Positions 9,773-39,515 of a stretch of 64,000 nt of DNA are shown here, one piece after another. The notes beneath the pieces were generated by a model, which saw only the letters and a program-made list of their open reading frames with translations, searched no databases and was not told where the DNA came from. The stretch is from NCBI GenBank assembly GCA_024233215.1, contig JACKPW010000001.1, positions 91,734 to 155,733 of the forward strand, written 5' to 3'. The stretch is from Verrucomicrobiales bacterium (GTDB lineage Bacteria; Verrucomicrobiota; Verrucomicrobiia; Limisphaerales; J093). The position numbers were made by a program, and so were the translations under genes. The stretch's first letter is position 1; every line of letters starts with the position of its first letter.

Positions 9773-9792
9773 GCTCGATTCATGCGGCAGTA

Positions 9793-9956
9793 ACCACGAA
9801 ATACACGAAATACACGAAGGGAGGAGCGAGGTACGGGTTGGCCGAGTGCCTTGCGCCGGTACGATCCGCCCCCTGTCACCACGGGGTAAGCTTGACGACA
9901 GGCTTGCCGAGCGGTTGTTGCCATGCGTTTTCGTGTGATTCGTGTATTTCGTGGTT
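9793..9956. repeat. intergenic palindromic element, copy A (CACGAA-repeat arms)
   Basis: Left arm AACCACGAAATACACGAAATACACGAA (9793-9819). Right arm TTCGTGTGATTCGTGTATTTCGTGGTT (9930-9956) is its imperfect reverse complement. ~110-nt variable loop. Lies immediately after the stop of the upstream + gene. Confidence 0.7.
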
Positions 9957-10044
9957 TGCTCAACGGCATGGATACGGCTGAGGAGTTCCAGCACGTTTTC
10001 AATTTCGTGGTTTTCCTGGCGGCTTCCCGGCTAGGATTCGCGCC

Positions 10045-11127
10045 ATGAAGATCGTACCCGTTTCGCTCGGTGACCGCAGCTATCGGATTCTGATCGGCGA
10101 CAGTCTCCTGCCCCGGTTGGGGCCGGAATGCGCGCGGCTGAAGCTCGGAAGACGCTGTGCCGTGATCACGGACTCGAACGTGGGTCCGCTCTACGCCGAA
10201 AGCGCCCTGAACTCGCTGCGCGGGGCCGGTTTCGATCCGATCCTGATCACCTTGCCCTCCGGTGAGCCGGCGAAACACCTGCGGCACGTGCAGGCGTGCT
10301 ACGATCAACTGGCGGTCCAGCGCCTGGAGCGACGTTCCTTCGTGGTGGCGTTGGGCGGGGGAGTGGTTGGGGATCTGGCCGGGTTCGTGGCGGCGACCTA
10401 TCTGCGGGGCATTGCGTTCGTGCAGGTGCCCACGTCCCTGCTCGCGCAGGTCGACAGCTCGGTGGGCGGCAAGGTGGGGGTGAACCTCAAAGCAGGCAAG
10501 AACCTGGTGGGTGCCTTTCATCAACCGCGGCTCGTGCTCTGCGACCTGGACACCCTGGGCACGTTGCCGGAGCGGGAACTCCGGGCCGGCCTCGCCGAGG
10601 TGATCAAGTACGGGATCATCCACGACGCGCCTTTCTTCCGTCGGTTGGAACGGGACCTGCAGAAACTGCTGGCCCTCGACGCGAAGACACTGGCGGCCGT
10701 GGTGGCCCGGTGTTGCCGGATCAAGGCCGAGGTCGTGGCCCAGGACGAGCGGGAGGGCGGTTTGCGGGCAATCCTGAACTTCGGCCACACGATTGGTCAT
10801 GCCATCGAGGCGATTTCCGGCTACGGCAAGTACCTGCATGGCGAGGCGATCTCGATCGGGCAGGTGGCCGCGGCGGAGTTGTCCGCGGCGTTGAAGGGGT
10901 TGCCGCCGCGGGATGTCAACCGCATCCGGGCGAGTTTCGAGCAAGCCGGGTTGCCGGTCTCCATCCGGTTGAATCCCCCCCAGCGGGAACGCCTGCTGGC
11001 GGCGATGAAACTGGACAAGAAGGTCAGCGGGGGGGAGGTGCGGTTCGTGCTGGCGGAAGCCATCGGCCGGGTGGTCTGGGGCCAACCGGTTCCGGCCGAC
11101 CTGATCGCGCGGGTGCTCGAGGCCTAG
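10045..11127 (+). CDS. aroB: 3-dehydroquinate synthase
   Basis: 360 aa. NAD-binding GGGVVGDLAGF, metal/substrate motifs KVGVNLKAGKN, NFGHTIGHAIE, HGEAISIG; the whole sequence reads as AroB. Confidence 0.9.
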   Translation: MKIVPVSLGDRSYRILIGDSLLPRLGPECARLKLGRRCAVITDSNVGPLYAESALNSLRGAGFDPILITLPSGEPAKHLRHVQACYDQLAVQRLERRSFVVALGGGVVGDLAGFVAATYLRGIAFVQVPTSLLAQVDSSVGGKVGVNLKAGKNLVGAFHQPRLVLCDLDTLGTLPERELRAGLAEVIKYGIIHDAPFFRRLERDLQKLLALDAKTLAAVVARCCRIKAEVVAQDEREGGLRAILNFGHTIGHAIEAISGYGKYLHGEAISIGQVAAAELSAALKGLPPRDVNRIRASFEQAGLPVSIRLNPPQRERLLAAMKLDKKVSGGEVRFVLAEAIGRVVWGQPVPADLIARVLEA

Positions 11128-11131
11128 TGGG

Positions 11132-12481
11132 GTGGGGTTTGTGCACCATTGCCACACGCGGCGGGGTGTCCTTATGCTGCGGGGCGTGAGCAGACACTTC
11201 ACGGCTCCCGCCCACCGGGTTCACTCCCTGGCCAACGGCGTCAATTTGGTTTTCGCGCCGATGCCGCACATGGCCAGCGTGAGCGTGGGTTTTTGGATGG
11301 CGGTGGGGGGGCGGCATGAGAGCGTGGAATTGAACGGCGTGTCGCACTTCATCGAGCACATGCTCTTCAAGGGCACGCGGCGTCGCAGCGCACGGCAGAT
11401 TTCCGAGGCGGTGGAGGGGGTGGGCGGCTACGTGAACGCCTTCACCAGCGAGGAACACACGTGCTACTACGCGCGGGCGCCGCAGAAACAGTTCGAACTG
11501 CTGGTGGACGTGCTGGCGGACATGGTGCGCAACCCGCTGTTCGAGAGCAGCGAAATCGACAAGGAACGGAGCGTGATCAAGGAGGAGATCGCCATGTACC
11601 TCGATCAGCCCCACCACTATGTGCAGGAGGTGCTGAACGCAGCCTTATGGCCGGAGCATCCGTTGGGGCGCTCGTTGACGGGGACGCCGGAGGGACTGGA
11701 CCGCCTTGGCCGCACGGAGTTGAAAGGCTTTCATCGGACGCACTACACCGGCGCGAACCTGACCATTTCCGTGGCGGGGAACCTCAGCGAACGCCGCCTC
11801 CTTGCCGCGTTGCGCCCGGTGGCCGCGGGCATGCCTCAGGGAACGGCCCGGCCGTATGAAGCCGCCCCGCCGGTTCCCAGGCGTCCGGGCGTCCGGTTGA
11901 TCACGCGCGACACCGAGCAGACGCAGGCGGCGCTGGGGGTGAGGACCTGCGCCCGGCATGACCCGCGGCGGTATGCGCTCCGACTGCTGAACGCGGTGCT
12001 GGGGGAGAACATGAGTTCGCGCCTCTTCGTTTCACTGCGCGAGGATCGCGGACTGGCGTATTCGGTTGGCAGCTCCATCAGCTTTTTTGAGGACGCGGGC
12101 GACCTGGTGGTGTCGCTGGGGTTGGAGACGAGGAACCTCCCCGAGGCGCTGAGGTTGATCACCGCGGAGATGCGGCGCCTGACCGAGAGAGCTCCGGGCC
12201 GGGTGGAATTCCAGCGGGCGCTCGACTATTCGCTGGGTCAGATTGACCTCGGCCTGGAGAGCACGGAAAGCCGGATGAACTGGCTGGGTGAGCAATACCT
12301 GGGTCATGGCCGTCTGGTGGCGCCGGCGGTGTTGAAGCGCCGGATGGCGGAGGTGCGCCCCGCGGATGTCCGGCAGGTGGCGCGGGAGTTCTTCCGCGCC
12401 GGACGGGCCAGCCTGGCGCTCGTGAGCCCGTTGAAGCGGGCAGGCCAGCTTCGTCCGTTGCTCGGCGGTTTGCCGGCGTAG
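11132..12481 (+). CDS. M16-family zinc peptidase (insulinase/pitrilysin-like)
   Basis: Inverted zinc motif HFIEHMLFKGT (HxxEH) with downstream E residues. ~440 aa. Start may be the internal ATG (MLRGVSRHF) at 11174. Confidence 0.8.
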   Translation: MGFVHHCHTRRGVLMLRGVSRHFTAPAHRVHSLANGVNLVFAPMPHMASVSVGFWMAVGGRHESVELNGVSHFIEHMLFKGTRRRSARQISEAVEGVGGYVNAFTSEEHTCYYARAPQKQFELLVDVLADMVRNPLFESSEIDKERSVIKEEIAMYLDQPHHYVQEVLNAALWPEHPLGRSLTGTPEGLDRLGRTELKGFHRTHYTGANLTISVAGNLSERRLLAALRPVAAGMPQGTARPYEAAPPVPRRPGVRLITRDTEQTQAALGVRTCARHDPRRYALRLLNAVLGENMSSRLFVSLREDRGLAYSVGSSISFFEDAGDLVVSLGLETRNLPEALRLITAEMRRLTERAPGRVEFQRALDYSLGQIDLGLESTESRMNWLGEQYLGHGRLVAPAVLKRRMAEVRPADVRQVAREFFRAGRASLALVSPLKRAGQLRPLLGGLPA

Positions 12482-12625
12482 TCGGGCCGGGGCGGCTGCC
12501 CGACACAGCCCGTTTGGAATCCCGATCTCAGACGGCATGCCGTCCCGACCGCCTGATGGCGATGGCGCGACTCCGGAACCGGGGCCGGTCCGATCCGCCT
12601 TCCTGGACGGGCTCAGAATGAAGCA

Positions 12626-12652
12626 GGGCGGCCCGAAGGCCGCCCGGTTTCG
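12626..12652. terminator. GC-rich stem-loop (GGGCGGCC-CGAA-GGCCGCCC) between convergent genes; possible bidirectional intrinsic terminator
   Basis: Perfect 8-bp GC stem with a 4-nt loop, followed by GGTTTCGTGG on + and by a moderately T-rich tract on the minus strand. Lies between the peptidase (+, stop 12481) and the DUF481 gene (-, stop 12741). Confidence 0.3.
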
Positions 12653-12740
12653 TGGAGTGTTCCAAGGAACCACCCCGTGGCACGCCGTCCGTCCGTGGGT
12701 CCCGCCGACCTGCGTCGGGACCCCGGGGTCGGCGGGCGGG

Positions 12741-13520
12741 TTAGAACTTGTAGGCGATGCCCGTGATGAGCTGGAAGTCGTTCTTGTTGCGTCCGGCTGC
12801 CGGCATGTTGCGGTAGGTGTCGATGCCCACCACGCGCAGGGAGAGGTTCTTCATGATGTCGGTCTCGAACCCAATCTCCGCCCGCAACAGGTAGTTCTCG
12901 AAGTCCTCCACCTCCGGATCGTAGCTCAGGGACTGCCAGAGCCGGGCACGGTCATTGATCTCCCAGGTGAACTTCTCACCGACATGCAGGCTGAAGTAGT
13001 CGTCACTCACGCCGCCAACCTCTTCCCAGATGTACCCGGGACCGAGTTCGCCGCTCAGGGTGAACTTGTCGTTCTTGATGAAGTAATAGCCGGCGCCCGG
13101 GCTGAGTCCGATGCGGTAGTTGACGTCGGCGAGTTTGTCCCGGGAGAAATCGACCCGGCCGTAAACGAAGAGCCGCTCGCTCACCAGGCGGTTGTACTGG
13201 CCGTAGGCGGCCATGTTGTTGGCGGTCTCCTTGTTGTCGGTCTCCCCGTAGGTGACGCTGAACCCGGCCCCGGCCTCGTTCTTGCCCCACTTCTTGATGG
13301 TGTCGATGGTGCCGTTGACGGTCAGGGTGTCGCTGTTACCGCGGGTCAGGGTGGCACCGATGGCGGCGCTGGTCTTCCAACTGGACGCCGGCTTCGGGGC
13401 TTCCGCTCCCTCGGGGGCGGCCGCGTCCTCGGCGGCGTTCACGGCGACGCACGCGGTGGCGAGCATCGCCAGGTCGCGGGTCATTCGAGCGCGTCCGGCA
13501 GGTCTGCGTTTGAGGTTCAT
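12741..13520 (-). CDS. DUF481 (YdiY-like) outer-membrane beta-barrel protein
   Basis: Signal peptide (MTRDLAMLATACVAVNA). TLTRGNSDTLTVNGTIDTIKKWGKNEAGAGFSVTYGETDN pattern typical of DUF481. Alternating beta-strand periodicity. Terminal aromatic (…GIAYKF). Confidence 0.7.
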   Translation of the reverse strand: MNLKRRPAGRARMTRDLAMLATACVAVNAAEDAAAPEGAEAPKPASSWKTSAAIGATLTRGNSDTLTVNGTIDTIKKWGKNEAGAGFSVTYGETDNKETANNMAAYGQYNRLVSERLFVYGRVDFSRDKLADVNYRIGLSPGAGYYFIKNDKFTLSGELGPGYIWEEVGGVSDDYFSLHVGEKFTWEINDRARLWQSLSYDPEVEDFENYLLRAEIGFETDIMKNLSLRVVGIDTYRNMPAAGRNKNDFQLITGIAYKF

Positions 13521-13670
13521 GATGTCTGCTTGTCTCTCGTGTCGAGTCGTTGTCAGTGATTGTCATCGGCCGGCCGCGATACCCGGGGCACCACGCCGGT
13601 CAGAGTTGGGGGAGAGTAGGTGCATTCCTGGGGGGCGAGTCAAGCGGACCCAGGAGTTTTCGTCATCGGC

Positions 13671-14618
13671 TCATCGGCGGAACTGTCCCGGGGCAACCCC
13701 ATGAACCCGCTTGAACACACGGGAGAAGTGGTAGGGATCCTGGAAGCCCACGGCGGCGGCGGTCCACTTCACGGAATGGTCTCCCTGCAGCAGCAACTCC
13801 GCCGCGTGGTCCATCTTGAGTCGGGTGAGGTACTGCAGTGGGGTCTCGTCGGTGAAACGGCGGAACAGGCGGGACAGGTATGCCGGCGCCAGGTGGCAGC
13901 GATGGGCCACTTCATCCACCGTCCGGAGGTCCAGGTAGTGCTCCTGAACATGCTGGCGGGCTCGCAGGAAGGTCCGATGGGCTTCGGAATGTCGTTCCCC
14001 CGTGGAATGAAGATCCTCGCGAAGCCGGGCGAGCAGCAGTTCGGTCAGCTTGGTGCCGATGCGACGCGACGCGGTCCGGGAGAGGTTCGCGCAGTCGAGC
14101 AGTTGATCAAAGATGTCGTGAATCCACCGGCTGTGGAGAATCCGGCGGGGACCGTCCTGCAGCAGTCGGGAGGCTTTCAGCAGGGCACCGGCCTCCCTGC
14201 CGGCAAAGTCGACGAAGAACTTCCCGGGTTGTCGGCCCGCCGTCGACCGGAGCCGGTAGCGGGTCTGCGGGCCGTAGGCAAAGACGGTTCCCGGCCCGAC
14301 CGGGAGGGAGCGCCCGACGATCTCAAGGTGCCACTGCCCGCTCACGATGTATTCCACCGCGTGGTAGCGAAACCCGTGGCGGGCGATGTGGTAATCCGGG
14401 GCACACTCCTCCCACCCGGCACACACCAGGGAAAGCGGCACCGCCGCCGGTGGCTGAAGATCGACAAACGCATAACGTCCCCGACGGACCTGCGTCGAGA
14501 TGAAGGCGGGGGTGGGCGCGGCGGGGATCGTTCCCATGAGGTCAAGAATGTCCATCCGATGGTCAAAAGGCGACATTTCAATCCACCTCCGGCTTCTGGT
14601 ACTCTGTGAAGCAAGCAA
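13671..14618 (-). CDS. AraC/XylS-family transcriptional regulator (cupin sensor + HTH)
   Basis: C-terminal AraC HTH signature (…AHRCHLAPAYLSRLFRRFTDETPLQYLTRLKMDHAAELL…GFQDPYHFSRVFKRVHGVAPGQFR). N-terminal cupin-like half. Start may be the internal M at 14576. Confidence 0.85.
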   Translation of the reverse strand: MLASQSTRSRRWIEMSPFDHRMDILDLMGTIPAAPTPAFISTQVRRGRYAFVDLQPPAAVPLSLVCAGWEECAPDYHIARHGFRYHAVEYIVSGQWHLEIVGRSLPVGPGTVFAYGPQTRYRLRSTAGRQPGKFFVDFAGREAGALLKASRLLQDGPRRILHSRWIHDIFDQLLDCANLSRTASRRIGTKLTELLLARLREDLHSTGERHSEAHRTFLRARQHVQEHYLDLRTVDEVAHRCHLAPAYLSRLFRRFTDETPLQYLTRLKMDHAAELLLQGDHSVKWTAAAVGFQDPYHFSRVFKRVHGVAPGQFRR

Positions 14619-14656
14619 TGACGATTTCCAGCATTCCTGTTCCGGGCGCGGCCGCG

Positions 14657-15670
14657 ATGAGCGACGGACTCGATCCCGCCGATGTGCCCCATCGCGTCCT
14701 GGCTTCGGGAGCCCGCATGCCCGCCATTGGCCTCGGCACCTTCGGTTCGGACCATGTGACCCCCAAGGCCGTGGCGGCGGCGGTGAAAGGGGCGGCCGCC
14801 GTCGGTTACCGGCACTTCGATTGCGCGTCGGTCTACGGTAACGAACGGGAGGTCGGCGGTGCCTTGCGCGAGATCGTCGCCGGCGGCATCCCGCGCGAGC
14901 AGCTGTGGATCACGTCCAAACTCTGGAACGACAAACACGGTGAGGCGGACGTCATTCCCCAATGCCGGCAGTCCCTCGCGGATCTTGGGCTCGATTACCT
15001 GGACACGTATCTGGTTCATTGGCCGTTCCCGAACTTCCATCCGCCCGGTTGCACGGTGGAGTCTCGCAGTGCCGATGCGCAGCCCTACATCCACGAGAAC
15101 TACCTTCGGACGTGGCGGCAGATGGAGAAACTTGTTGAGTTGGGGTTGGTGAAGCACATCGGCACCTCGAACATGACGATTCCCAAGCTGCGTCTGCTGT
15201 TGCGCGACGCCGTGGTTCGACCTGCGGTGAACGAGATGGAACTGCACCCGCACTTCCAGCAACCGGGGTTGTTCCAGTTCGTGCGGGATGAGGGCATCGA
15301 ACCGATCGGCTTTTGCCCCCTCGGATCGCCCAACCGGCCGGAGCGGGATCGCACCCCCGAGGACACGAATCCGCTGGAGGACCCGGTGATCGTTGCCATG
15401 GCCCGGGCGCACCGGGTTCATCCCGCGAGCATTTGCATCAAGTGGGGGGCGCAGCGCGGCCAGACGCCGATCCCGTTCTCGACCAATCCCGCCAACTACC
15501 TGGCCAATCTCAAGGCAGTGTCAGGAGACCCCTTGAGCGACGGGGAAATGCAGGCCATCGCCGGCATCGATCGCAACTGCCGGCTCATCAAGGGCCAGGT
15601 CTTTCTCTGGAAGGAAGGCCAGTCCTGGGAGGATCTGTGGGATACGGATGGTGTGATCACGCCGCCCTGA
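14657..15670 (+). CDS. aldo-keto reductase (candidate L-fucose/D-threo-aldose 1-dehydrogenase)
   Basis: ORF 14606..15670. Start taken at the third ATG (MSDGLD…) to leave a divergent promoter gap to the AraC gene. AKR hallmarks: IGLGTFG, DCASVYGNE, catalytic tetrad context WITSKLW, LVHWP. Confidence 0.8.
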   Translation: MSDGLDPADVPHRVLASGARMPAIGLGTFGSDHVTPKAVAAAVKGAAAVGYRHFDCASVYGNEREVGGALREIVAGGIPREQLWITSKLWNDKHGEADVIPQCRQSLADLGLDYLDTYLVHWPFPNFHPPGCTVESRSADAQPYIHENYLRTWRQMEKLVELGLVKHIGTSNMTIPKLRLLLRDAVVRPAVNEMELHPHFQQPGLFQFVRDEGIEPIGFCPLGSPNRPERDRTPEDTNPLEDPVIVAMARAHRVHPASICIKWGAQRGQTPIPFSTNPANYLANLKAVSGDPLSDGEMQAIAGIDRNCRLIKGQVFLWKEGQSWEDLWDTDGVITPP

Positions 15671-15716
15671 GCCGGTTCCGTTCTCCCCCTTTTCAACTGA
15701 ACCCACCGTCAATGCC

Positions 15717-16781
15717 ATGAGCCCCATGAAAGCCGCCTACCTGCCCGGCGACAGCACCACCGTCCTGAAGGAAGCCTCCGTTCCCGAACCGGGTTACGGA
15801 GAGGTGTTGCTCCGGATGAAAGCCTCGACGATCTGCGGGTCCGACATCCGTTGCATCTATCACGAGCACCTCGGGAAGGGACCCGAGGGATATCAGGGGG
15901 TCATCGCCGGTCATGAACCCGCCGGCCAGATCGTCAGGACCGGTCCCGGCTGCCGGCGGTTTCAGGAGGGGGACCGCGTCATCGTCTACCACATCTCGGG
16001 TTGCGGCGTGTGCAATGACTGTCGCCGCGGCTACATGATCTCCTGCACCAACCCGAAGTACCGTCGGGCCTACGGCTGGCAACGCGACGGTGGCATGGCG
16101 GATTACCTGCTGGCCGAGGAAAAGGACCTGGTCCTGCTGCCGGATGAATTGACCTTTGCCGACGGTGCCCAGGTGGCGTGCGGGTTTGGCACGGTGTACG
16201 AGGGACTTGAGAAGGTCGGCGTGAGCGGCAATGACGCGGTCCTGATCACCGGGCTCGGTCCCGTGGGATTGGCGACCGGGATGCTCTGCCGCGCGATGGG
16301 AGCCCGCCGGATCATCGGGATCGATGTGGTATCCGAACGAATGGAACTGGCCAAACGGTTGGGCCTCTGCGACGCAGTGCTGGCTTCAGGAACGGACAAT
16401 GTGTCGCAAGTCCTTGATCTGACCGGGGGCCACGGAGTCGAGCGCGCCGTGGATTGCTCGGCCCATCCCGTTGCCCGCGCCACGGCCATTCGTGCCACTC
16501 GCAAGTGGGGTCGCATCGTGCTGCTGGGCGAGGGGAACAGCGTGGAGTTCAATCCGTCGCCCGACATGATCCACGATCAGAAGACGCTTTACGGTTCCTG
16601 GGTGACCTCGATCTGGAAGATGGAGGAACTCGTGGAGCGCCTGGTGCGATGGAACCTGCACCCGGCCGACCTGATCACTCACCGTTTCGCCTTGGACCAC
16701 GTGGCCGATGCCTACTCGCTGATGGCCTCCGGCAAATGCGGCAAGGTCGCGGTCTGCTTTGACGAAGAACTGAAAGTGTAG
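15717..16781 (+). CDS. Zn-dependent medium-chain alcohol/polyol dehydrogenase
   Basis: GHEPAGQIV (catalytic Zn). Structural Zn cysteines GCGVCNDCRRG…C. Rossmann GLGPVGLA. Confidence 0.85.
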   Translation: MSPMKAAYLPGDSTTVLKEASVPEPGYGEVLLRMKASTICGSDIRCIYHEHLGKGPEGYQGVIAGHEPAGQIVRTGPGCRRFQEGDRVIVYHISGCGVCNDCRRGYMISCTNPKYRRAYGWQRDGGMADYLLAEEKDLVLLPDELTFADGAQVACGFGTVYEGLEKVGVSGNDAVLITGLGPVGLATGMLCRAMGARRIIGIDVVSERMELAKRLGLCDAVLASGTDNVSQVLDLTGGHGVERAVDCSAHPVARATAIRATRKWGRIVLLGEGNSVEFNPSPDMIHDQKTLYGSWVTSIWKMEELVERLVRWNLHPADLITHRFALDHVADAYSLMASGKCGKVAVCFDEELKV

Positions 16782-16794
16782 CTCCGAACAACTC

Positions 16795-16948
16795 ACCACG
16801 AATGAACACGAATTCACACGAATCTACCACGGACGCCGAGCGTCTTCGGGAGGTGGCTCAGCCCTTGCGAAGGGCAACGTGGCTACGACTCGAGAGCACC
16901 ACCGCGCAGGCCCTTGGGGATTCGTGTGAATTCGTGTTCATTCGTGGT
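16795..16948. repeat. intergenic palindromic element, copy B (perfect 30-bp inverted arms)
   Basis: Left ACCACGAATGAACACGAATTCACACGAATC (16795-16824). Right GATTCGTGTGAATTCGTGTTCATTCGTGGT (16919-16948) is its exact reverse complement. ~94-nt loop. A further CCACGAA follows immediately 5' of the next start codon. Confidence 0.8.
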
Positions 16949-16966
16949 TAACCCTCCTTCCACGAA

Positions 16967-17407
16967 ATGCTCAAAGGAATCGCACCCTGCATCAGCCCCG
17001 AACTCTTGAAAGTGCTCGCCGAGATGGGCCACGTCGACGAACTGATCCTGGCTGACGCACACTTTCCCGGCCACACCATGAACCCCCGCGTCCTGCGGGC
17101 CGACGGCCTCGGCATCGCGACACTGCTCGACGGGATCCTCCCGTTGTTCGAGTTGGACAGTTACGCCGACCCGCTGGTGATGATGGCGGCGGTTGAGGGC
17201 GACCAACTGGACCCTGCGGTGGAGGCGAGGTACCTGGCCGCCGTCCAACGGCATGTGCCGCAAGCCGGACCGCCCGTGCGCATCGATCGCTTCGCCTTCT
17301 ATGACCGTGCCCGGCAGGCGTTCGCCGTGGTGATGACCGGCGAGACCGCGAAGTACGGCAACATCCTCCTCAAGAAGGGGGTCACGCCGGTGGTGTCCCA
17401 ACACTGA
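16967..17407 (+). CDS. RbsD/FucU-family sugar mutarotase (L-fucose mutarotase/D-ribose pyranase)
   Basis: 146 aa. Family-typical MLKGI…[25 protein letters not shown]…, small cytoplasmic protein. Confidence 0.8.
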
Positions 17408-17417
17408 AGGGCGAACC

Positions 17418-19133
17418 GTGAAACCCCTGCAATTGACTGTCTGGACGTCCTTTCTGGCTGCTTGGGGCCTGATTTCCGTTTCAGGCATGGCCCAGGATAC
17501 CCAGCGGGAGAGGCCGGAGGCATGGAGGGCGCTGGTCTACGGCGGTCGGTTCATGGACCGCTTCCTGCCGAGCCCCGTGAGGAACCCGCTCACGTCCGGT
17601 ACCTGGGGGGTGGATGCGGTCAAGCCGCGCGATGTGCTGATCGGGATCGAGGAACCGGACTGGTCGTATTGGGGGGGCAACATCAAGCAGGTCGGCGATG
17701 CCTATCACCTCTTTGTGTGTCGCTGGCCGGAGGGGCACCCCAAAGGCCACATGGCGTGGCCGGAATCCGAAGTCGTTCACGCTGTTGCGCCCCATTCATG
17801 GGGTCCGTTCAAGGCGGTCCAGGTGATCGGCCCGGGGCACAATCCGGAAATCTATCGGGCCAGGGACGGCAGTTACGTCCTGTACGTGATCGGTGGCTAC
17901 TACCACGCGCCGGCAATTGCCGGCCCTTGGACGAGAAAGACATTCAGCTTCAACCCCCGCGGTCGTCGGATCATCGAGGGTCTCAGCAACCTCAGTTTCG
18001 CCCCCCGGGAAGACGGCTCGGTGCTCATGGTCTGCCGGGGCGGCGGCATCTGGGTCAGCGAGGACGGTCTCGGCCCCTGGCAACAGGTGTCGAACCGGCG
18101 CGTCTATCCCGACGTGGAAGGCGCCTTCGAGGATCCCGTCATCTGGCGGACCGGGGTCCAATACCACATGATCGTCAATGACTGGCGCGGCCGCATCGCC
18201 TGGTACCTTCGTTCCAAGGACGGTTTCGAATGGAAGGTCGACCCCGGGGAGGCCTACATGCCCGGCATCGACCGTTACGAGGACGGCACGAACGTGGACT
18301 GGTACAAGTATGAGCGGCTCAAGCTCCTCCAGGATGACCACGGGCGCCCCTACCAGGCCAATTTCGCTGTCATCGACTACTCGAAATGGGAGGACAAGCC
18401 GAACGACATTCACTCGTCGAAGAACATCACCATTCCGCTGACGGTTGAACGCCTCATTGCCGTGCTCGACGCGGACCCCATTCGTCAGGACACCCGGGCC
18501 ATCCGGCTCAAGGTCATGGCGGAGGCGGGGTTTGATCCGGGGAAGGACATGGACCTGGGCTCGCTCCGTTTCGGAACCCCCGACGAGGTGAACTTCGGAC
18601 GCGGCTGCCGGGTCACCGGATCGAGGGCCGACGGGGACGACCTCATCCTTACCTTCGACGGCCGGGGCAACGGCTTCACGGCGGACCACTTTGCGGGCAA
18701 GTTGCTCGGCCGGACTCCCACCGGGAAGCTGCTTTTCGGTTACTCCCGATTGCCCGGTGTGACCTACGGAGATGCCTTCTTGTCGGCGGACCTGCCGCGC
18801 GTGCACCTCGAAAACGGCCGGCTCCAAGTCCGCCTGGACATCAAGAACGTCGGTCTGACCGCTTCCCGGGCCGGAGAACTGATTGTCCGGTTCCAAGCCG
18901 GGAACGTGGATCACGCTTTCAGTCTTCCGGCTCCTTCACTGACGCCGCTTCAGGAGACGACCTTGACGGGTTTCCCGCCGTTCGAGCTGGATCCGGAACT
19001 GGCGTACCAAGTCAAGGTGACCGCTTCGTGGCAGAAGATTCCCCTGTTCGAGACCGAACCCCACAAGAAAGCGCCATTGCTCAAGGTGGAAGCGGCTTCC
19101 CCTGGACCCGATGGCGCCCCGCAGAACCCATGA
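17418..19133 (+). CDS. secreted beta-propeller glycoside-hydrolase-like protein (GH43/GH117-like fold) with C-terminal beta-sandwich domain
   Basis: Signal peptide (MKPLQLTVWTSFLAAWGLISVSGMA). Repeated blade-like segments (YHLFVCRWPE, SYVLYVIGGYYH, GIWVSEDG, YHMIVND). Family assignment is uncertain. Confidence 0.5.
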   Translation: MKPLQLTVWTSFLAAWGLISVSGMAQDTQRERPEAWRALVYGGRFMDRFLPSPVRNPLTSGTWGVDAVKPRDVLIGIEEPDWSYWGGNIKQVGDAYHLFVCRWPEGHPKGHMAWPESEVVHAVAPHSWGPFKAVQVIGPGHNPEIYRARDGSYVLYVIGGYYHAPAIAGPWTRKTFSFNPRGRRIIEGLSNLSFAPREDGSVLMVCRGGGIWVSEDGLGPWQQVSNRRVYPDVEGAFEDPVIWRTGVQYHMIVNDWRGRIAWYLRSKDGFEWKVDPGEAYMPGIDRYEDGTNVDWYKYERLKLLQDDHGRPYQANFAVIDYSKWEDKPNDIHSSKNITIPLTVERLIAVLDADPIRQDTRAIRLKVMAEAGFDPGKDMDLGSLRFGTPDEVNFGRGCRVTGSRADGDDLILTFDGRGNGFTADHFAGKLLGRTPTGKLLFGYSRLPGVTYGDAFLSADLPRVHLENGRLQVRLDIKNVGLTASRAGELIVRFQAGNVDHAFSLPAPSLTPLQETTLTGFPPFELDPELAYQVKVTASWQKIPLFETEPHKKAPLLKVEAASPGPDGAPQNP

Positions 19134-19134
19134 G

Positions 19135-21024: not shown

Positions 21025-21043
21025 ACCGGACCTTACGCCCGCA

Positions 21044-22780: not shown

Positions 22781-22800
22781 CTCACATCCTTACAGGGGAG

Positions 22801-22955
22801 GGAACCACGAAATCCACCAATTGCACGAAAGCAGCGGGAAGCTGCGGTCCGCGTCATGGTCTGCGGAATCACCGTTCGGTGATCGGGGCTGAGCCACGAG
22901 ACCATCGGCAGCGACTCGCGTTTCCTTTCGTGTAATTCGTGTGTTTCGTGGTTCC
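22801..22955. repeat. intergenic palindromic element, copy C
   Basis: Left GGAACCACGAAATCCACCAATTGCACGAAAG (22801-22831). Right CTTTCGTGTAATTCGTGTGTTTCGTGGTTCC (22925-22955), an imperfect reverse complement. Directly after the sulfatase stop. Confidence 0.7.
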
Positions 22956-23111
22956 ATTGAATCGATGCCTCGAAGATTGTCCGAAAACTCCCAGAACCAC
23001 GTAGCCGACGTGAGGAGGCTGATTCACACCGCTCAGACCACGGGTGGTCCATGGTCTTGAGCCTCCTCACGTCAGCAGCCACGGTTTCTTAAACTCCCTC
23101 TCGAAACCATC

Positions 23112-24635: not shown

Positions 24636-24685
24636 CAAGCCGGGGTTGGGATTCCACCGACATCGCTGATTACATTTGTCAAGTC

Positions 24686-27647: not shown

Positions 27648-27724
27648 GGCAATTCTCGGGAGAACCTAACGAGGACCCGGCGGCGACACCACTGCTTTTT
27701 GAGGTGTATCCGTGCAGTGAAGGA

Positions 27725-27927
27725 AACCACGAATGAACCTGGAAACCGCAGATGAACGGGGATGAACGCAGATAAGTCCCTCGACGTGAGCCCCCCACGT
27801 CCGCCGGATGTCTTCACCCATTGGGTGTGACGCGAAAATCGCGCAAGTCCTTGGGTATCTGCGTCTATCTGTGTCGATCTGCGGTTCAACTGCTTTTTCT
27901 AGGATGAACACGAATCCACACGAAAGG
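27725..27927. repeat. intergenic palindromic element, copy D (divergent/composite variant with GATGAAC-type sub-repeats)
   Basis: AACCACGAATGAACC…CCGCAGATGAACGGGGATGAACGCAGATA (left) versus TATCTGCGTCTATCTGTGTCGATCTGCGG (right, ~22/29 reverse-complement match). Then CTGCTTTTT…GATGAACACGAATCCACACGAAAGG. The direct repeat ACTGCTTTTT occurs at 27691 and 27888. Confidence 0.55.
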
Positions 27928-27976
27928 CGGGTCGTTTCCCCGTGCCAAGGAGTGGGAGCTGCGTCCGGGAGGCGGA

Positions 27977-28411
27977 TTACCCGTCCTCGGATCTGAGCGT
28001 GGAAAACGGGTTCAGCAGCCGGGCGCCGGTGTTGCGGTATCCCGATTCGTCACGGCTGACCACGATGAGATCGTGAACCATCGCCGTCGCAGCGATCAGA
28101 GCGTTCAGGGTCGGCACGGGTTGCCGCAGCCCCATCCGGCCCCATTGGTTGGCCACCCGTTTGTCCACGCCGAGGATGCGATCCTCGAACTGCGTGCTCA
28201 GGCGCTGCAGCCATCGTTCCAACGTCGTGGCTTGGCGGGCGTCACGCTGCTTGATGCGTTCGATGCCCTGACGGATTTCCCCCAGCACCAGCACGCTCAC
28301 GAACAGGCCGTCAGGGTCCGCCGATTCGATCCAAGTCCGTACTCCCGGGTTGCAGCGGGCCGCTTTTCGAAGTTCGCTCAGGATGTTGGTGTCAAGCAGA
28401 TGGCCGTTCAT
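27977..28411 (-). CDS. vapC: PIN-domain toxin (VapC/FitB-like)
   Basis: MNGHLLDTNILSELRK… (conserved D at the PIN N-terminus). Further acidic residues. 144 aa. Confidence 0.85.
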   Translation of the reverse strand: MNGHLLDTNILSELRKAARCNPGVRTWIESADPDGLFVSVLVLGEIRQGIERIKQRDARQATTLERWLQRLSTQFEDRILGVDKRVANQWGRMGLRQPVPTLNALIAATAMVHDLIVVSRDESGYRNTGARLLNPFSTLRSEDG

Positions 28412-33745: not shown

Positions 33746-33770
33746 GTAGTCACCGGAGTCCACGTAAGTT

Positions 33771-36700
33771 ATGGCCGAAGTCCCTGGACAACCGAATCTC
33801 CCCGAGCAGGAAACCTCCGTCGCTCCCGTCCCCGGAAAGACGGCGACTCAAGCGGCACCGGCTCTCGGCGACGCGACCTACGAGATCATCCGGCAACGGT
33901 TGGACACCCACGCGGCCACGTTGCGCGAACGGCTGAGTCGGTTGGATGCGCGGCGGCAGGAGGTCTTTGGCGCCATCGAATACAAGCTGCTGCAGGCCGA
34001 TCGTATCGTCACGGCCAACAACTGTGTGCCCCGCGACATGGTGCCGCTGGCGGGCGGGCGCTTCCTGTTTGGTTTCAACGTGCGTTTCGGGCTCAAACAG
34101 GAGATCGATTTGGCCGACGTGTTCGCGATCTACCACCGCGACGAAACCACCGGCGCCTGGAAGGAGGCCGGGTTGGACCCGCTGCAGGACGCCGCGTTCC
34201 TCCGCGATTTCAAGCGTCTGTACAACGTCTATGCGAAGACTGTTTTCCGGAAGTTCTCGGTGATCGACGGTCAGCTTTACCTGGTGTTCGGCGTGGGCGC
34301 CGGCGTGGAAGACATCGCCGTCTTCAAGTGGGCTTACAACGACGGCGAACCGCGTTATGTCGATGGTCGGGCGGAGGCGGACTTTCGGCGGGTCGGGTTT
34401 CCGGCGGCGCACGCCTTTCGGTGGCAGATTCCGGATCGCGAGTCCTTCCGTTACGGCGACCACCCGCATCTCTCGATCGAGGACCGGGTCTTCGTGGAGT
34501 GCATCGGGGGCGACCTGACGATCAAGGTGGAGGACAACACGGCGAGCGGTGAGGGCATTTACGAGGAACCGGTCGAGGACCGATACCAGAAGGTGGATGA
34601 CGCGGAAGTGGCCTACGCGGCGTTGGACCATCTGATCCTGCTGAAGATTCGTCCCTACAAGGAAACGGTCACCCGCTACTTCATCTTCAACGAGAAGCTG
34701 CGGCAGGTGGTGCGGGTGGATTCAATCGGCGAATCCTGCGTGCGGTTGCCGGAGGATCAAGGGTTGGTGTTCCCGGACGGCTACTACCTGTCGACGGGTG
34801 AACTGAAACGGTTCGAAGGGCGAACCGTTGGGATGCTCATCGAGCGCGTGATCCCGGCACCGAACGGCGAGGACACGTTGTTCGTGTTCTACAACCGGAC
34901 GAGCGGCGAATACGTGTTGATGCCCTACCGGTTGATCCAACAACGGATCGAGGAGCGGCTGACCTGCCAGGGCTTTTCCCTGTTTCCCAACGGTCATTTG
35001 CTCTCCTTTCGCGCGGAACCGGAGGCACAGAAACACCATCTCATCCAGCTTCGCCAGACCCCGTTCCACCAAGCCGGTCACGAGCCGCCCGGCCAGAAGG
35101 AGGCGTTCCTTTACCAAGTGGGCAACAAGGACGTGGTGCGCGCCCTTTCGGATGGCACCGAAATCCTGACCCTCCTGCGCAAGCCCGATCCTTACGCCGC
35201 GCTCTACACCGACCTCGTCAAACGCTGTGAAGCGGTGCTCGATTCCTACCCGTGGCTCGCGTCGCCGGATGGGTTCGGAGTCGATGAGGCCCTGCGGGCG
35301 GTCCGGGGCGCGGCGGACAAGGCGGTTGCCGAATTCGACAAGGTGCGGCGACTTCGGGCGGAAGCGGCGCGGCAGGTGAAGGAAATCCGCACGCGTTGTC
35401 AGGACCGGTTTGACCTGATCCGGCGCGCCGATTTCAAGAGCCTCAACGACTTTGTCCAGCACCTGACCGCACTCCGGCAGTTGCGGGGCGAGTTGATCAC
35501 GCTGCGCGAGGTGCGGTACATCGATGTCGCGGCGCTTGACGCCGTCGAGGAGACGGTCACGAAACAGGGCGAACACCTCTCGGCGGCCTGCGTGAAGTTC
35601 CTGTTGCGTCCGGAAGCGCTCGAACCGTATCGGAAGGAGGCGGCCTCGCAGTTGGCGGCGGTCGATTCGGTGACCAAGGTCGCCGAGGGACGCGACCTCG
35701 AGAAGACCGTGGCGAAGACCGGTGGCGAACTCGAGATGCTCATCGAAATCGTCAACGGGTTGAAGATCGAGGATGCCACCGAAACGACGCGGATCATCGA
35801 CAGCATCACGGCGGTCTTTGCGACGTTGAACCAGGTTCGGGCGGCGCTGAAGCAGCGACTCAAGAGCCTGGCGGCCGCCGAAGGCGCGGCCCAGTTCGAT
35901 GCCCAGATGAAGCTGCTGGGGCAGTCGGCGGCCAGTTACCTCGACCTGTGCGACACCCCCGCCCGTTGCGACGAGTACCTCAACCGGATCTCCGTCCAGA
36001 TCGAGGAACTTGAAGGTGCATTCGCGGATTTCGAGGAATACACCGTCCAGCTGGCCGAACGGCGCACCGAGCTTTACGAGGCGTTCGAGCAACGCAAAGT
36101 CGCCCTCGTCGAGCAACGCAACAAACGGGCCAACGCCCTCATGACCGCCGCCGAGCGGGTGTTGAAGGTCATTCGCAACCGGTTGGCCGGCTTCCAGACG
36201 CTCGACGCGATCAACGCCTACATGGCGTCGGACCTGATGATCGCCCGGGTCCGGGAGACCATCGACCAGCTGCTCGCTCTTGAGGATTCGGTCAAGGCGG
36301 ACGATTTGCAGGGCCGGCTGAAGAGCGCCCAGCAGGAGGCGGTCCGGCAGTTGAAGGATCGCCAGGAGTTGTTCGTCGGCGGGCAAGACGTCATCAAGCT
36401 CGGGCGCCACCATTTCAACCGGAACACCCAGCCCCTCGACCTCACCATCGTCCAGCGCGACGGCGTCCAGCACCTGCACCTGACGAGCACCAAGTATTTC
36501 GAAGCGATCAACGATCCCGGGTTCAATGCCACGTGGGCGGTCTGGGACCAGGAACTGGTTTCGGAAAACGCCGACGTCTATCGAGCGGAGTACCTCGCCT
36601 GGCAATTGCTGAAGCAAACCGATGGGAGCGCGGGCGGCCCGGCCGCAGCAGCCGGGGAGCCGTTTGGCACGAAGTCGGCGGAACCGCCGGACAGGCGCAC

Positions 36701-39317
36701 GGGGAGGGAGATGCTGCAGCGTTCCAGGGGACCGTCGGGCGGGCCGCCCGACGGGACAGGCGGGCCGCCTGTGCTCCCGGAGGAGTCACATCTCGCTCAG
36801 GTACAGGCATTCGCCGCCACCCGGTATCAGGAGGGTTACACCAAGGGGGTGCACGATCTGGACGCCGCGCTGATTTCCCGCGCGTTGCTGTCGACCCATG
36901 CCGCCTTGGGACTTGCCCGTTACCGTCCCGCTGCCCGGGGCTGCGCCGCCGTCTTCTGGCACCGTTTCTGTCCGGAGAACGTGAAGACCCTTTGGACGCA
37001 CAAGCTTGCCGCCTTCGCGGAGCGTAACCGGTTGTTCCCCGGCGACCCCACCCAACGCGACTACGTCATGGCACTGGCGAGACTGCTCAAGGGATTCGCC
37101 GAGGGCACCGGGCTCTTTCCGACTGCGCTCGCGGACGAGGCGGGCGGTTATCTTTTTCAGCAGCTCACCGCCGGCGGGCCGTTTGTGGTCAGCCGGGAAG
37201 GGGACCGGTTGCTGGCCGGGTTCCGCCAGCACTTGGTACAGCAGGATCGCGAGACGGCATTCACGGAATCGCGCCAACGCCTCGCCGATCATCCGGAGAG
37301 CGAACTCGAACTGGTCCGGGACTGGGTGCGCGGTTTTCTCCTCAACCGGCCGGAAACCCAGCGCCACCTGGATGAGGTGGTCGGCGTGCTGTTTTGCGGC
37401 GAGGCGTTCGAGGGCCGGCCGGTGGAAGCCGACAGCGCGTGCGAGATCGAGGGGCTGAAGGGGAGCCATCGCCGGATTCAGGACGGGCGCTACCATTTCG
37501 ATTACCTCGACTTTAGGGATCGCCTCGAGCATTTCGCATCGACCGTCCAGCCGGAGTTCGAGCGGTTCCATGCACTCAAGCAACAGCTCCTGCAACGCGA
37601 ACGCGAACGGCTGCGGCTCGAGGAATTCTCGCCGCGCGTCCTCACTTCCTTCGTCCGGAACCAGCTGATCGACGAGGTCTACCTGCCGCTCATCGGCGAC
37701 AACCTGGCCAAACAGGTCGGTGCCGCGGGCGATCGGAAACGCACCGACCTGATGGGCCTGCTCCTGCTGATCTCCCCGCCGGGCTACGGCAAGACCACGT
37801 TGATGGAATACATCGCCAACCGGCTGGGCATCATCTTTGTCAAGGTGAACGGACCGGCCCTGGGCGATCGGGTGACTTCACTGGATCCGGCCGACGCGCC
37901 CAACGCCGCGGCCCGCGAGGAGATCGAGAAACTCAACCTTGCCCTGGAGATGGGGGACAATGCGATGCTCTACGTCGACGACATCCAGCATTGCAGTCCG
38001 GAGTTTCTCCAGAAGTTCATCTCGCTGTGCGATGCGCAGCGGAAGATCGAGGGCGTGTGGCGGGGGCGTTCGCGCACCTACGATTTGCGCGGCCGGAAGG
38101 TGGTCGTGGTCATGGCCGGGAATCCCTACACCGAAAGCGGACAGAAATTCCGCATTCCGGACATGCTGGCGAACCGCGCCGATACCTACAACCTCGGCGA
38201 CATCATCGGCGGCAATCCGGCCTGGTTCAAAGCCAGTTACCTCGAGAACGCCGTCACGTCGAACGCGCTCCTTGCACCACTGGCCAACAAGAGCCAGAAC
38301 GACGTCCGGCATTTCATTCGACTGGCCGAGACCGGCGAGCGCGATCTCAGCGGCTTTGACGGGAGCTACTCGGCGCAGGAGGTCGACGAGATCCTGTCCG
38401 TGATGAAGAAACTGGTGCAGCTCCGCGAAGTCATCCTGCGGGTCAACCAGGAGTATATCGCCTCCGCCGCCCAGGCCGACGAGTTCCGCACCGAACCGCC
38501 GTTCAAGCTCCAGGGATCCTATCGGAACATGAACCGGCTTGCGGAGAAGGTGGTGCCGGTCATGACCGACGAGGAAGTGAGCGCGCTGGTTCTGGAACAC
38601 TACCGGGGCGAGGCGCAGACGCTCACGACCGGGGCCGAGGCGAATCTTCTGAAGTTCAGGGAACTCGTGGGTGCGCAGACCGAATCCGAGGCCTCGCGTT
38701 GGCAGGAGATCAAGCGCACGTTCAATCGAAACCAACGTACGGGACGCGTGGACCCGTCGGATTCGGTCGGTCGCGTGGTGGCGCAGTTGGCCGGTTTCCA
38801 GGACGGTCTCGAGTCAATTCAGAACACATTGGCGCAACGCCTTACGGAGACGCGCCCGCCGGTGACCCTGGATCTGGGGCCGGTGGCGGAAGGGCTTGCC
38901 GGCATTCGTGCGGTCGTCGAGCAGCAACTTGCCGGCGTCAACCAGGCCACGCAGCCGGAGGTTCGTCCTGATCCCGGGGAACTGGCACGCCAGTTGAGCG
39001 AGGGACTCCACGCCTTACGTTCCGACCTCAGCCGCGCGATCACCGAGGTTCACACGGGCGCGATGGCGGAGAAAGTCACCAGCCTGTCGCACGAAATGGA
39101 GATGTTGCACAGCACGCTGGCCACTTTGAAGGACGTCGCGGCCCGGCAGCGCGATTATCTTCGGAACGTCGAGGCCATGCTGGTCGAGCAGGCCCGGAAG
39201 GGGGCGGTTGAATTTGAGTTGACCCAGGAGATGCTGACGAACGAACAGGCGTTCCTGGACAAGTTCCATGAGATGCTCGGCGAAAGGGAAGCGCCGCCAC
39301 CACCGGCGGCGACTTGA
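33771..39317 (+). CDS. giant (1848 aa) multidomain protein with C-terminal-third MoxR/AAA_5-type ATPase core; function unknown
   Basis: Walker A LISPPGYGKTT (~37767-37799). Walker B NAMLYVDDIQH (~37965-37990). Sensor/arginine region VVVMAGNPYTESGQKFRIPDMLANRADTYNL, analogous to the MoxR ATQNP…LDRF region. >1300 aa upstream has a beta-rich N-domain and long helical regions. Starts 25 nt after the lipoprotein stop. Confidence 0.75.
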   Translation: MAEVPGQPNLPEQETSVAPVPGKTATQAAPALGDATYEIIRQRLDTHAATLRERLSRLDARRQEVFGAIEYKLLQADRIVTANNCVPRDMVPLAGGRFLFGFNVRFGLKQEIDLADVFAIYHRDETTGAWKEAGLDPLQDAAFLRDFKRLYNVYAKTVFRKFSVIDGQLYLVFGVGAGVEDIAVFKWAYNDGEPRYVDGRAEADFRRVGFPAAHAFRWQIPDRESFRYGDHPHLSIEDRVFVECIGGDLTIKVEDNTASGEGIYEEPVEDRYQKVDDAEVAYAALDHLILLKIRPYKETVTRYFIFNEKLRQVVRVDSIGESCVRLPEDQGLVFPDGYYLSTGELKRFEGRTVGMLIERVIPAPNGEDTLFVFYNRTSGEYVLMPYRLIQQRIEERLTCQGFSLFPNGHLLSFRAEPEAQKHHLIQLRQTPFHQAGHEPPGQKEAFLYQVGNKDVVRALSDGTEILTLLRKPDPYAALYTDLVKRCEAVLDSYPWLASPDGFGVDEALRAVRGAADKAVAEFDKVRRLRAEAARQVKEIRTRCQDRFDLIRRADFKSLNDFVQHLTALRQLRGELITLREVRYIDVAALDAVEETVTKQGEHLSAACVKFLLRPEALEPYRKEAASQLAAVDSVTKVAEGRDLEKTVAKTGGELEMLIEIVNGLKIEDATETTRIIDSITAVFATLNQVRAALKQRLKSLAAAEGAAQFDAQMKLLGQSAASYLDLCDTPARCDEYLNRISVQIEELEGAFADFEEYTVQLAERRTELYEAFEQRKVALVEQRNKRANALMTAAERVLKVIRNRLAGFQTLDAINAYMASDLMIARVRETIDQLLALEDSVKADDLQGRLKSAQQEAVRQLKDRQELFVGGQDVIKLGRHHFNRNTQPLDLTIVQRDGVQHLHLTSTKYFEAINDPGFNATWAVWDQELVSENADVYRAEYLAWQLLKQTDGSAGGPAAAAGEPFGTKSAEPPDRRTGREMLQRSRGPSGGPPDGTGGPPVLPEESHLAQVQAFAATRYQEGYTKGVHDLDAALISRALLSTHAALGLARYRPAARGCAAVFWHRFCPENVKTLWTHKLAAFAERNRLFPGDPTQRDYVMALARLLKGFAEGTGLFPTALADEAGGYLFQQLTAGGPFVVSREGDRLLAGFRQHLVQQDRETAFTESRQRLADHPESELELVRDWVRGFLLNRPETQRHLDEVVGVLFCGEAFEGRPVEADSACEIEGLKGSHRRIQDGRYHFDYLDFRDRLEHFASTVQPEFERFHALKQQLLQRERERLRLEEFSPRVLTSFVRNQLIDEVYLPLIGDNLAKQVGAAGDRKRTDLMGLLLLISPPGYGKTTLMEYIANRLGIIFVKVNGPALGDRVTSLDPADAPNAAAREEIEKLNLALEMGDNAMLYVDDIQHCSPEFLQKFISLCDAQRKIEGVWRGRSRTYDLRGRKVVVVMAGNPYTESGQKFRIPDMLANRADTYNLGDIIGGNPAWFKASYLENAVTSNALLAPLANKSQNDVRHFIRLAETGERDLSGFDGSYSAQEVDEILSVMKKLVQLREVILRVNQEYIASAAQADEFRTEPPFKLQGSYRNMNRLAEKVVPVMTDEEVSALVLEHYRGEAQTLTTGAEANLLKFRELVGAQTESEASRWQEIKRTFNRNQRTGRVDPSDSVGRVVAQLAGFQDGLESIQNTLAQRLTETRPPVTLDLGPVAEGLAGIRAVVEQQLAGVNQATQPEVRPDPGELARQLSEGLHALRSDLSRAITEVHTGAMAEKVTSLSHEMEMLHSTLATLKDVAARQRDYLRNVEAMLVEQARKGAVEFELTQEMLTNEQAFLDKFHEMLGEREAPPPPAAT

Positions 39318-39331
39318 GGACGCTGCAGAGG

Positions 39332-39486
39332 GACCACGAATGAACACGAATGGACACCAATCCGAACGGAGGAGGCTTCGAAGGGCGGCCTTGAAGGACC
39401 TCGCCGGCATCGGAAGCCCGGGTTGCTGTGGCGTTGACCTTGAACCCCTCGCTCCCATTCGTGTCCATTCGTGTGGATTCGTGGTC
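39332..39486. repeat. intergenic palindromic element, copy E
   Basis: Left GACCACGAATGAACACGAATGGACACCAATCC (39332-39363). Right CCATTCGTGTCCATTCGTGTGGATTCGTGGTC (39456-39486), an imperfect reverse complement. 14 nt after the giant ATPase stop. Confidence 0.7.
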
Positions 39487-39515
39487 ACGGCAGGAGTCGT
39501 CAGATCGTGCACAAC

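Follow-up and report, generated by a model that had tools for sequence, protein, structure and literature searches.

Analysis of 64,000 nucleotides of contig JACKPW010000001.1 from a Verrucomicrobiales bacterium (assembly GCA_024233215.1, positions 91,734 to 155,733; hereafter the window) indicated that five intergenic sites carry arms made of tandem units of the CACGAA type, and that these sites are likely to be gene-less, non-autonomous copies or relics of a widespread family of hairpin cassettes built around a nuclease gene, similar in kind to the hairpins formed by repetitive extragenic palindromes (REP; the hairpins, REPINs) and to transposable elements of the miniature inverted-repeat type (MITEs). 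The full-length cassette is about 450 bp long and holds one gene for a PD-(D/E)XK nuclease of about 125 aa (Pfam PDDEXK_3 / NCBIfam GxxExxY) between inverted arms. The non-autonomous reading was reached because the tandem motif occurs above chance, gene and arms are linked, elements are present or absent at the same junction among relatives, and unit types are shared between gene-less and gene-bearing elements. Coverage of the source genome was the 64-kb window, and the link between gene and arms is drawn from other genomes. This link, the second unit type at one of the five sites (site D) and the wide distribution over phyla had been missed in the first-pass annotation of the stretch.

The palindromes were established by direct reading of the five sites together with an inverted-repeat search. 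The window elements are 143-165 bp long with arms of 27-37 nt and are without Pfam-recognisable coding content:

9792-9956, element A: arms 9792-9818 and 9930-9956, 27 nt, 93% complementary; unit period 9 nt; centre 111 nt.
16795-16948, element B: arms 16795-16824 and 16919-16948, 30 nt, 100% complementary; unit period 10 nt; centre 94 nt.
22801-22955, element C: arms 22801-22831 and 22925-22955, 31 nt, 87% complementary; unit period 9 nt; centre 93 nt.
27744-27886, inner element of site D, CGCAGAT/CACAGAT units of 10 nt: arms 27744-27774 and 27856-27886, 77% complementary; centre 81 nt.
39332-39486, element E: arms 39332-39368 and 39450-39486, 37 nt, 84% complementary; unit period 10 nt; centre 81 nt.

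Five palindromic copies with arms of direct CACGAA repeats at about one helical turn had been described in the first-pass annotation. The palindromes stand for A, B, C and E, in which the arms are inverted, but not for D (27725-27927), where the CACGAA pieces have the same orientation. The repeats themselves are as described, each arm of A, B, C and E consisting of three CACGAA hexamers spaced 9 nt (A and C) or 10 nt (B and E), and the 30-nt arm quoted for copy B is correct and fully complementary to its partner. The units of element A are of the CACGAAATA type (9 nt) and those of element B, 10 nt each, are CACGAATGAA, CACGAATTCA and CACGAATC, while the middle unit of the left arm of element C has decayed to CACCAA. 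The arms end in AACC/GGTT in A, C and the inner D element, in ACC/GGT in B and in GACC/GGTC in E. The centres are GC-rich and unconserved, as had been noted (81-111 nt, 63-68% G+C, mutually unrelated). The pattern CACGAAN{3,5}CACGAA was found 14 times in the window compared with 0.10 expected from shuffles, and all 14 occurrences are confined to the five intergenic sites; a generalised three-unit pattern gave 10 arms compared with 0.24 in shuffles, nine of them belonging to these elements and one, at 37262, lying inside coding sequence.

Examination of 85 open reading frames (ORFs) adjoining hairpins in other genomes revealed mostly unrelated housekeeping genes, and only PDDEXK_3 stood out; their commonest Pfam families included no transposase, integrase or Y1 transposase. 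In a Kiritimatiellota locus (L103) the arms enclose a PDDEXK_3 ORF, and PDDEXK_3 ORFs flanked by hairpins were identified in Syntrophobacter (L060) and Nitrosomonas (L096). For the reverse test, 80 metagenomic loci with genes for relatives of this protein (NCBIfam TIGR04256, 'GxxExxY protein') were collected, 68 of them with usable flanks. Arms of at least two units in convergent orientation were present on both sides in 47 of the 68 loci and at least one arm in 61, compared with 1 of 93 shifted control windows. The arms are tight on the ORF, with an arm-to-arm distance of about 370-560 nt. Both unit types of the window bracket GxxExxY genes, CACGAAT in loci L128, L150 and L170 and CGCAGAT in L127, L134 and L144, and gene-less and gene-bearing elements of one unit type share single contigs in five cases (L126, L127, L129, L134 and L140).

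Comparison of these loci defined the family arm as two to four, about three, units of C-R-C-N-R-A followed by 2-4 nt, with a period of 8-10 and usually with AACC...GGTT ends; A, B, C, E and the inner D element all have arms of this pattern. Cassettes and their gene-less relatives occupy short spacers between co-transcribed genes, typically just past a stop codon. By crude ORF calls, the nuclease gene has the orientation of its upstream neighbour in a ratio of 48:15. One cassette of the Verrucomicrobia lies exactly between its host genes (carA-TAA|AACCGCGAATGGACGCGAATGGACGCGAAT...ORF...ATTCGCGTCCATTCGCGTCCATTCGCGGTT-purA), and another, in a microcompartment operon, lies between a bacterial microcompartment (BMC) shell gene and ackA, the right arm ending at the ackA ATG. 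Many GxxExxY proteins start with MDTNxHE, MNTN or MDTD, which is the translated arm, the start codon often being inside the arm, and elements B and E retain the arm ATG context of these starts.

The 64-kb window contributes 49- and 59-codon ORFs of its own that run through elements. The first (16802-16951) starts at an ATG in the left arm of B, spans the element and ends with a TAA right after the right arm, while the second (39340-39519) starts at an ATG in the left arm of E and its TGA shares bases with the start codon of the following gene (ATGA). They begin MNTNSHE... and MNTNGHQ..., respectively. Both may be chance ORFs, their length not being unusual at 64.5% G+C.

Structure comparison placed the GxxExxY protein next to the nuclease domain of Dna2 (9.0), Cas4 Pcal (8.6) and enzymes of the lambda-exonuclease type (8.0), with Hjc resolvases more distant (6.8), and Foldseek agreed. 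Across 36 homologues the residues P73-D74...D84-x-K86 and two glutamates in the GxxExxY region do not vary, and the active site therefore looks intact by sequence. No solved structure related by sequence to the protein was found, and PADLOC and PHROGs have no family for it except for one marginal Cas4 match. A single search gave 3,622 cluster representatives of PDDEXK_3/GxxExxY at E<=1e-10. A 2012 survey of the superfamily listed the function of the family as unknown and noted multiple transfers between divisions, and in the open-access literature no paper was found that ties GxxExxY, PDDEXK_3 or PF13366 to repeats or mobility.

Orthologous junctions of relatives were compared with those of the window. 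The junction between the Zn-dehydrogenase (ADH) gene and FucU measures 185 nt in the window and holds element B. This ADH is 100% identical to a protein of a Verrucomicrobiales metagenome-assembled genome. Its closest relatives are labelled Pedosphaerales, and in L201-L203, whose ADH is 88-94% identical, the spacer is 13-24 nt and contains no element, while L204 (ADH 87% identical) carries a different, CACAGAGG-type element there. At junction A, L212, whose flanking proteins are about 89-90% identical, has the right arm only, identical at 28 of 29 positions within a surrounding spacer that has diverged, and L211 has no arm. An arm can thus be kept better than its surroundings, as seen in this one case. 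Taken together the two junctions indicate that elements have been gained, inherited and partly lost. The REP- or MITE-like character suggested in the first-pass annotation finds support in these close relatives lacking an element and in the arm type being common to PD-(D/E)XK nuclease cassettes.

One way in which such copies might be maintained is as follows. Copies of the nuclease encoded elsewhere in the genome would recognise the phased units, in the form of duplex DNA or extruded into a hairpin or cruciform, and cutting at the arms could drive the copying or maintenance of full and gene-less elements in trans, a role comparable to that of the REP-associated tyrosine transposase (RAYT) for REPINs or of a transposase for MITEs. 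Once inserted, the element would be transcribed with the operon and fold into an RNA stem of about 30 bp, which is a plausible substrate of RNase III and may alter the stability or translation of the flanking mRNA. At a broader level we tentatively propose that the GxxExxY gene and its arms might be an unrecognised class of minimal selfish elements (about 450 bp with one Cas4-like nuclease of about 125 aa) present across bacterial phyla, which would settle in operon spacers, rely on host read-through for expression and sustain gene-less hairpins in large numbers, the five window sites among them, as the PD-(D/E)XK counterpart of the REPIN-RAYT system.

An alignment of 44 elements with a ten-nucleotide period was used to determine which features of the arms are constrained. 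Summed over these elements, 85.7% of the stem positions form standard pairs, and the pairing falls to 28-39% in slid registers. Columns 2-5 are AACC in at least 80%, and positions C1, C3 and A6 of the unit are invariant, while pairing is poorest at unit position 4 across the family (11-17 of 44 unpaired). Both sides had changed in 23 of 33 pairs, compared with 16.1 in shuffles (0/500), and the unit period follows the clade of the protein, all 20 loci of clade 1 (at least 49% identity to the L103 protein) having strictly 10-nt units with the ATG in the arm and the more distant GxxExxY clade having mostly 9-nt units, although covariation and clade-period correlation alike could reflect shared descent and not selection. 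The window holds both periods.

Several points weigh against reading the window sites as members of a nuclease-driven family. The GxxExxY gene or a remnant of it is absent from the 64-kb window, as determined with tblastn and an 80-sequence hidden Markov model (HMM) in six frames, and the element centres are without trace of a deleted nuclease gene. By inspection no target-site duplication was found at A, B, C or E, the only candidate being ATGAAC at the nested site D. The window copies differ in their spacers and centres, which means that they do not stem from recent copy-paste events of the kind seen in typical MITE bursts. The GxxExxY gene was also absent from the fetched stretches of IMG/VR viral contigs that bear hairpins, and the orientation statistics of the GxxExxY genes come from crude mechanical longest-ORF calls.

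The position of the elements could suggest a function for the host. Each of the five window sites is part of a co-directional gene string, with A, B, C and E starting 13-20 nt past the stop of a plus-strand ORF and D lying between two minus-strand ORFs, which agrees with the gene positions first reported, and the junctions in other genomes are 19 co-directional, 7 convergent and 3 divergent. In addition the stems are very stable: the RNA fold of element A has -89.7 kcal/mol (z = -7.0), and the z-scores of B, C and E are -9.3, -6.0 and -4.1, respectively. The elements might thus be host-selected RNA elements with stems acting as RNase III sites, 3'-end protectors or translational insulators, the nuclease gene borrowing such stems for its own expression and gene-less copies being kept for tuning operon expression. 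The nuclease start codon buried in the arm, the orientation of the gene with host transcription and the compensated pairing of the arms would all be in line with this. We nevertheless consider it unlikely. Mismatches between the arms that arise by transition are 33 G.U versus 37 A.C on the sense strand, so that wobble is not preferred and, on either strand, there is no sequence signal of selection at the RNA level; close relatives do without the element at orthologous junctions; no U-tract follows the stems; and the helically spaced, conserved hexamer and the arrays of solo arms described below (L100 and L126) are unexplained by pairing alone.

The first-pass annotation had also raised the idea of terminator hairpins, which was not borne out. 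The sequences after the stems are GGTTTGCTC, GGTTAACCC, GGTTCCATT and GGTCACGGC, none with a U-tract, a terminator scan of 9600-28100 (A-D) calls no terminator-like site at the CACGAA elements, and the sites are inside co-directional gene strings. Its statement that the copies are not a duplicated non-coding RNA gene, on the other hand, holds up: Rfam gave no gathering-score match in the whole window and none even at E<=10 around element A, and the unconserved centres, folded alone, are no more structured than shuffled sequence (z -2.3 to +1.1).

Phased units at 9-10 bp with C1, C3 and A6 invariant, and arms that occur alone or in direct arrays, would also suit binding arrays for a chromosomal DNA-binding protein, such as a global regulator or nucleoid protein, with the hexamers placing protomers on one face of the helix. 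A published precedent exists for this interpretation. Aklujkar et al. 2009 (PMC2700814) described in Geobacter metallireducens intergenic sites of 3-5 tandem 7-9-nt repeats, mostly in opposite-strand pairs at variable distance, as 'predicted global regulator binding sites' of classes 1-3, and they proposed unidentified global regulators or IHF/HU as the binders, the paired sites of three tandem TCTCCGTS[Y] repeats being read in this way. As far as the published description allows a comparison, the window elements are alike in being intergenic opposite-strand pairs of three tandem repeats, and the class 2 unit TCTCCGTS[Y] given there is the reverse complement of the CACGGAGA units around the GxxExxY gene of L185. 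The paper covers one genome and, in its available portion, reports no nuclease link, mobility or cross-phylum distribution; compared by description, it is the closest prior description found. For the elements studied here a binding array appears quite improbable, given that the sites are past stop codons inside operons and not at promoters, that the variable spacers in the two arms of an element complement each other, something that binding by a protein would not call for, that presence or absence of the element differs among relatives, and that in 47 of the 68 loci a single, specific gene family is tightly framed by the arms.

Palindromes that are imperfect and variable in the centre, AAC...GTT at many of the ends and small promoterless ORFs co-oriented with upstream genes are also reminiscent of integrons, in which attC sites and gene cassettes are handled by a tyrosine integrase. 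This explanation is disfavoured and, in our opinion, very improbable. Both are structure-conserved palindromes, but attC has inverted boxes (R''-L''...L'-R') and occurs in ORF-then-attC arrays next to intI, while here the arms are direct tandem units and not inverted R/L boxes, the ORF is inside the palindrome and not between successive sites, and the elements are scattered singly in housekeeping operons. Among the window ORFs scanned no integrase was found, and no transposase, Y1 transposases included, or PD-(D/E)XK family was matched either.

Non-autonomous relatives of the nuclease cassette, which remain the reading we favour, share with REPINs that they are short intergenic hairpins of two inverted repeats with many gene-less copies per genome, that copies of the repeat also flank the cognate gene, and that an element, the one at junction A, is vertically inherited with its arm well kept. 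They differ in that the gene encodes a PD-(D/E)XK nuclease of about 125 aa and not an HUH/Y1 (IS200-like) transposase, that the repeat is three tandem 8-10-nt units starting AACCAC and not a single REP with a GTAG head, that the gene is multi-copy and inside the hairpin, and that centres can be about 100 nt and are mutually unrelated among copies. As in MITEs, the elements are small, have terminal inverted repeats, no coding capacity and several copies, and there are gene-carrying partners with the same ends; however, no target-site duplication was seen, the copies are not near-identical, the ends consist of phased sub-repeats, and the partners, in other genomes, encode a PD-(D/E)XK nuclease and not a recognised transposase. 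Membership in either group thus fails for want of a Y1 transposase, a GTAG head, a target-site duplication or a recognised transposase.

In the intervening sequences (IVS) of 23S rRNA the flanking stems are excised by RNase III. For the Coxiella IVS with S23p (PMC4990558), a small ORF inside a host transcript is likewise described as belonging to a selfish element, although there the ORF is S23p and not a PD-(D/E)XK nuclease and the host site is rRNA and not an operon spacer.

The gene-arm link gives a testable substrate for the widespread, uncharacterised PDDEXK_3/GxxExxY family and offers an explanation for intergenic palindromes read as regulator-binding sites in one genome paper. Should the nuclease indeed move or maintain the arms, the cassettes would rank with the smallest self-contained mobile or selfish units that prokaryotes have, and they would be a second and independent case of genome residents of the REPIN kind. 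The elements put stems of about 30 bp between operon genes and generate spurious ORFs (MNTN..., ...IRVHSW), and they may matter for the assembly and annotation of environmental genomes.

Site D turned out to be a composite of two unit types. The inner element, of CGCAGAT/CACAGAT units, has the arms AACCGCAGATGAACGGGGATGAACGCAGATA and TATCTGCGTCTATCTGTGTCGATCTGCGGTT with AACC...GGTT ends, and it lies between two pieces of an apparently split CACGAAT-type left arm:

27724-27738, plus strand, by direct reading: 5' piece of the split left arm, AAACCACGAATGAAC.
27910-27927, plus strand, by direct reading: 3' piece of the split left arm, ACGAATCCACACGAAAGG.

Joining the pieces as AAACCACGAATGAAC|ACGAATCCACACGAAAGG restores a regular three-unit left arm. 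They are parted by a 171-nt segment (27739-27909) that holds the CGCAGAT element, and both junctions carry a copy of ATGAAC (27733-27738 and 27904-27909). No right-hand CACGAA partner was found downstream, the next CACGAA on the minus strand being only at 34491, and the CACGAAT arm is a solo arm. The sequence suggests that the CGCAGAT element is a nested insertion into this older, partnerless arm. A small hairpin with a T-run (GCGGTTCAACTGC TTTTTC) at 27881-27898 on the plus strand overlaps the end of the CGCAGAT right arm; between two minus-strand genes, it is the only terminator-like match near any element in the range scanned (9600-28100). A PIN-domain (VapC-like) ORF, 27977-28411 on the minus strand, directly adjoins the composite site. 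In Flavobacterium and Chitinophagaceae (L006 and L012) arms of the CACGAATT type were seen beside or around hairpins of the CACAGATT and CACGGAA types, an arrangement that parallels site D and points to a tendency of elements to settle within or next to each other.

A scan of GTDB species genomes with the three-unit pattern gave at least 120 loci, although about 70 chance matches are estimated in the 596 Gb searched and single matches may be noise. Among the matches listed, 74 of 171 triple-unit matches had two or more TTCGTG within 350 nt downstream versus 13 upstream, and dozens were clear hairpins with loops of 9 to more than 200 nt. The hosts among the matches listed were Verrucomicrobia, Planctomycetes, Acidobacteria, Chloroflexi, Gamma-, Beta- and Deltaproteobacteria, Heliobacteria (Firmicutes), Bacteroidota and Hydrogenedentota, and one archaeon, a Thermoplasmata metagenome-assembled genome (MAG). 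Carriers available in culture include Herpetosiphon aurantiacus DSM 785, Desulfobacter vibrioformis DSM 8776, Rhodocyclus purpureus DSM 168 and Flavobacterium spp. Spacers vary from copy to copy, yet match between both arms of one copy. Related unit types beside CACGAA were CACAGAT, CACGGA, CACTAAT and CGCTAAT. The arm order is convergent in about 85% of cases; the divergent order, with TTCGTG units first and CACGAA second, was observed in Pyrinomonadaceae and other Acidobacteriota (L010, L057, L051 and L008). Between arm pairs 200-800 nt apart no other recurrent cargo was seen by eye in lists of the longest ORFs, to which no family scan was applied.

Two loci carry arms in direct arrays. On the minus strand of L100 (5250-5750) an array of left arms only was found, in which two arm variants alternate with spacers of about 16 nt, and in L126 (1880-2660) a 68-nt unit, consisting of an arm and about 38 nt, is repeated about 12 times with left arms that have no inverted partners. 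These arrays indicate that arms can multiply as modules. In the Nitrosomonas MAG (L096, 1200-3500) a CACGAAT arm faces an ATTAGTG partner (complement CACTAAT), and unit position 4 is mismatched throughout.

Matches in IMG/VR viral contigs numbered at least 120, and about 17 of the 120 loci listed (L213-L332) were clear hairpins. Carriage of the full cassette by phages is not supported, hairpins being present in some viral contigs but the GxxExxY gene in none of the stretches fetched. In L230 a 248-aa ORF lies between two widely spaced arms. BLAST of a 41-nt model arm gave one 20-nt chance match in the PLSDB plasmids and none in the INPHARED phages, and a literature search by sequence, with hexamers and 16-17-mers, gave chance matches only or none.

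The window is a region of fucose and sulfated-glycan utilisation with sulfatases, an alpha-L-fucosidase, FucU, a GH43 enzyme and a BNR sialidase-like protein. An exact-sequence look-up of FucU gave no entry. Element A is 20 nt past the stop of ORF 8378-9772 (plus strand) and upstream of a 3-dehydroquinate-synthase-like gene at 10045; element B is between the ADH gene (stop 16781) and FucU (ATG 16967); element C is between two sulfatase genes; and element E is 14 nt past the stop of a 1848-aa DUF3686/AAA ATPase ORF (33771-39317, plus strand), which shows DUF3686 ('ATPase involved in DNA repair'), DUF7902 and an AAA domain; the element separates this ORF from the next one.

Apart from the elements, two isolated terminal units were identified:

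10003-10012, 47 nt downstream of element A: TTTCGTGGTT, the outermost right-arm unit.
16959-16966, plus strand, directly before the FucU ATG: TCCACGAA.

The second corresponds to the extra CCACGAA before FucU that had already been pointed out and is indeed present (16961-16966); it is missing from the FucU leaders of L201-L203. Both solitary units are probably relics of decayed elements. In L204 (2557-2821) the CACAGAGG-type element at the ADH-FucU junction has a further pair of small hairpins around it (GTACGACGGGCTTCTCAGCCCGTCG ... CGACGGGCTGAAAGCCCATCGTAC), which looks like another repeat family.

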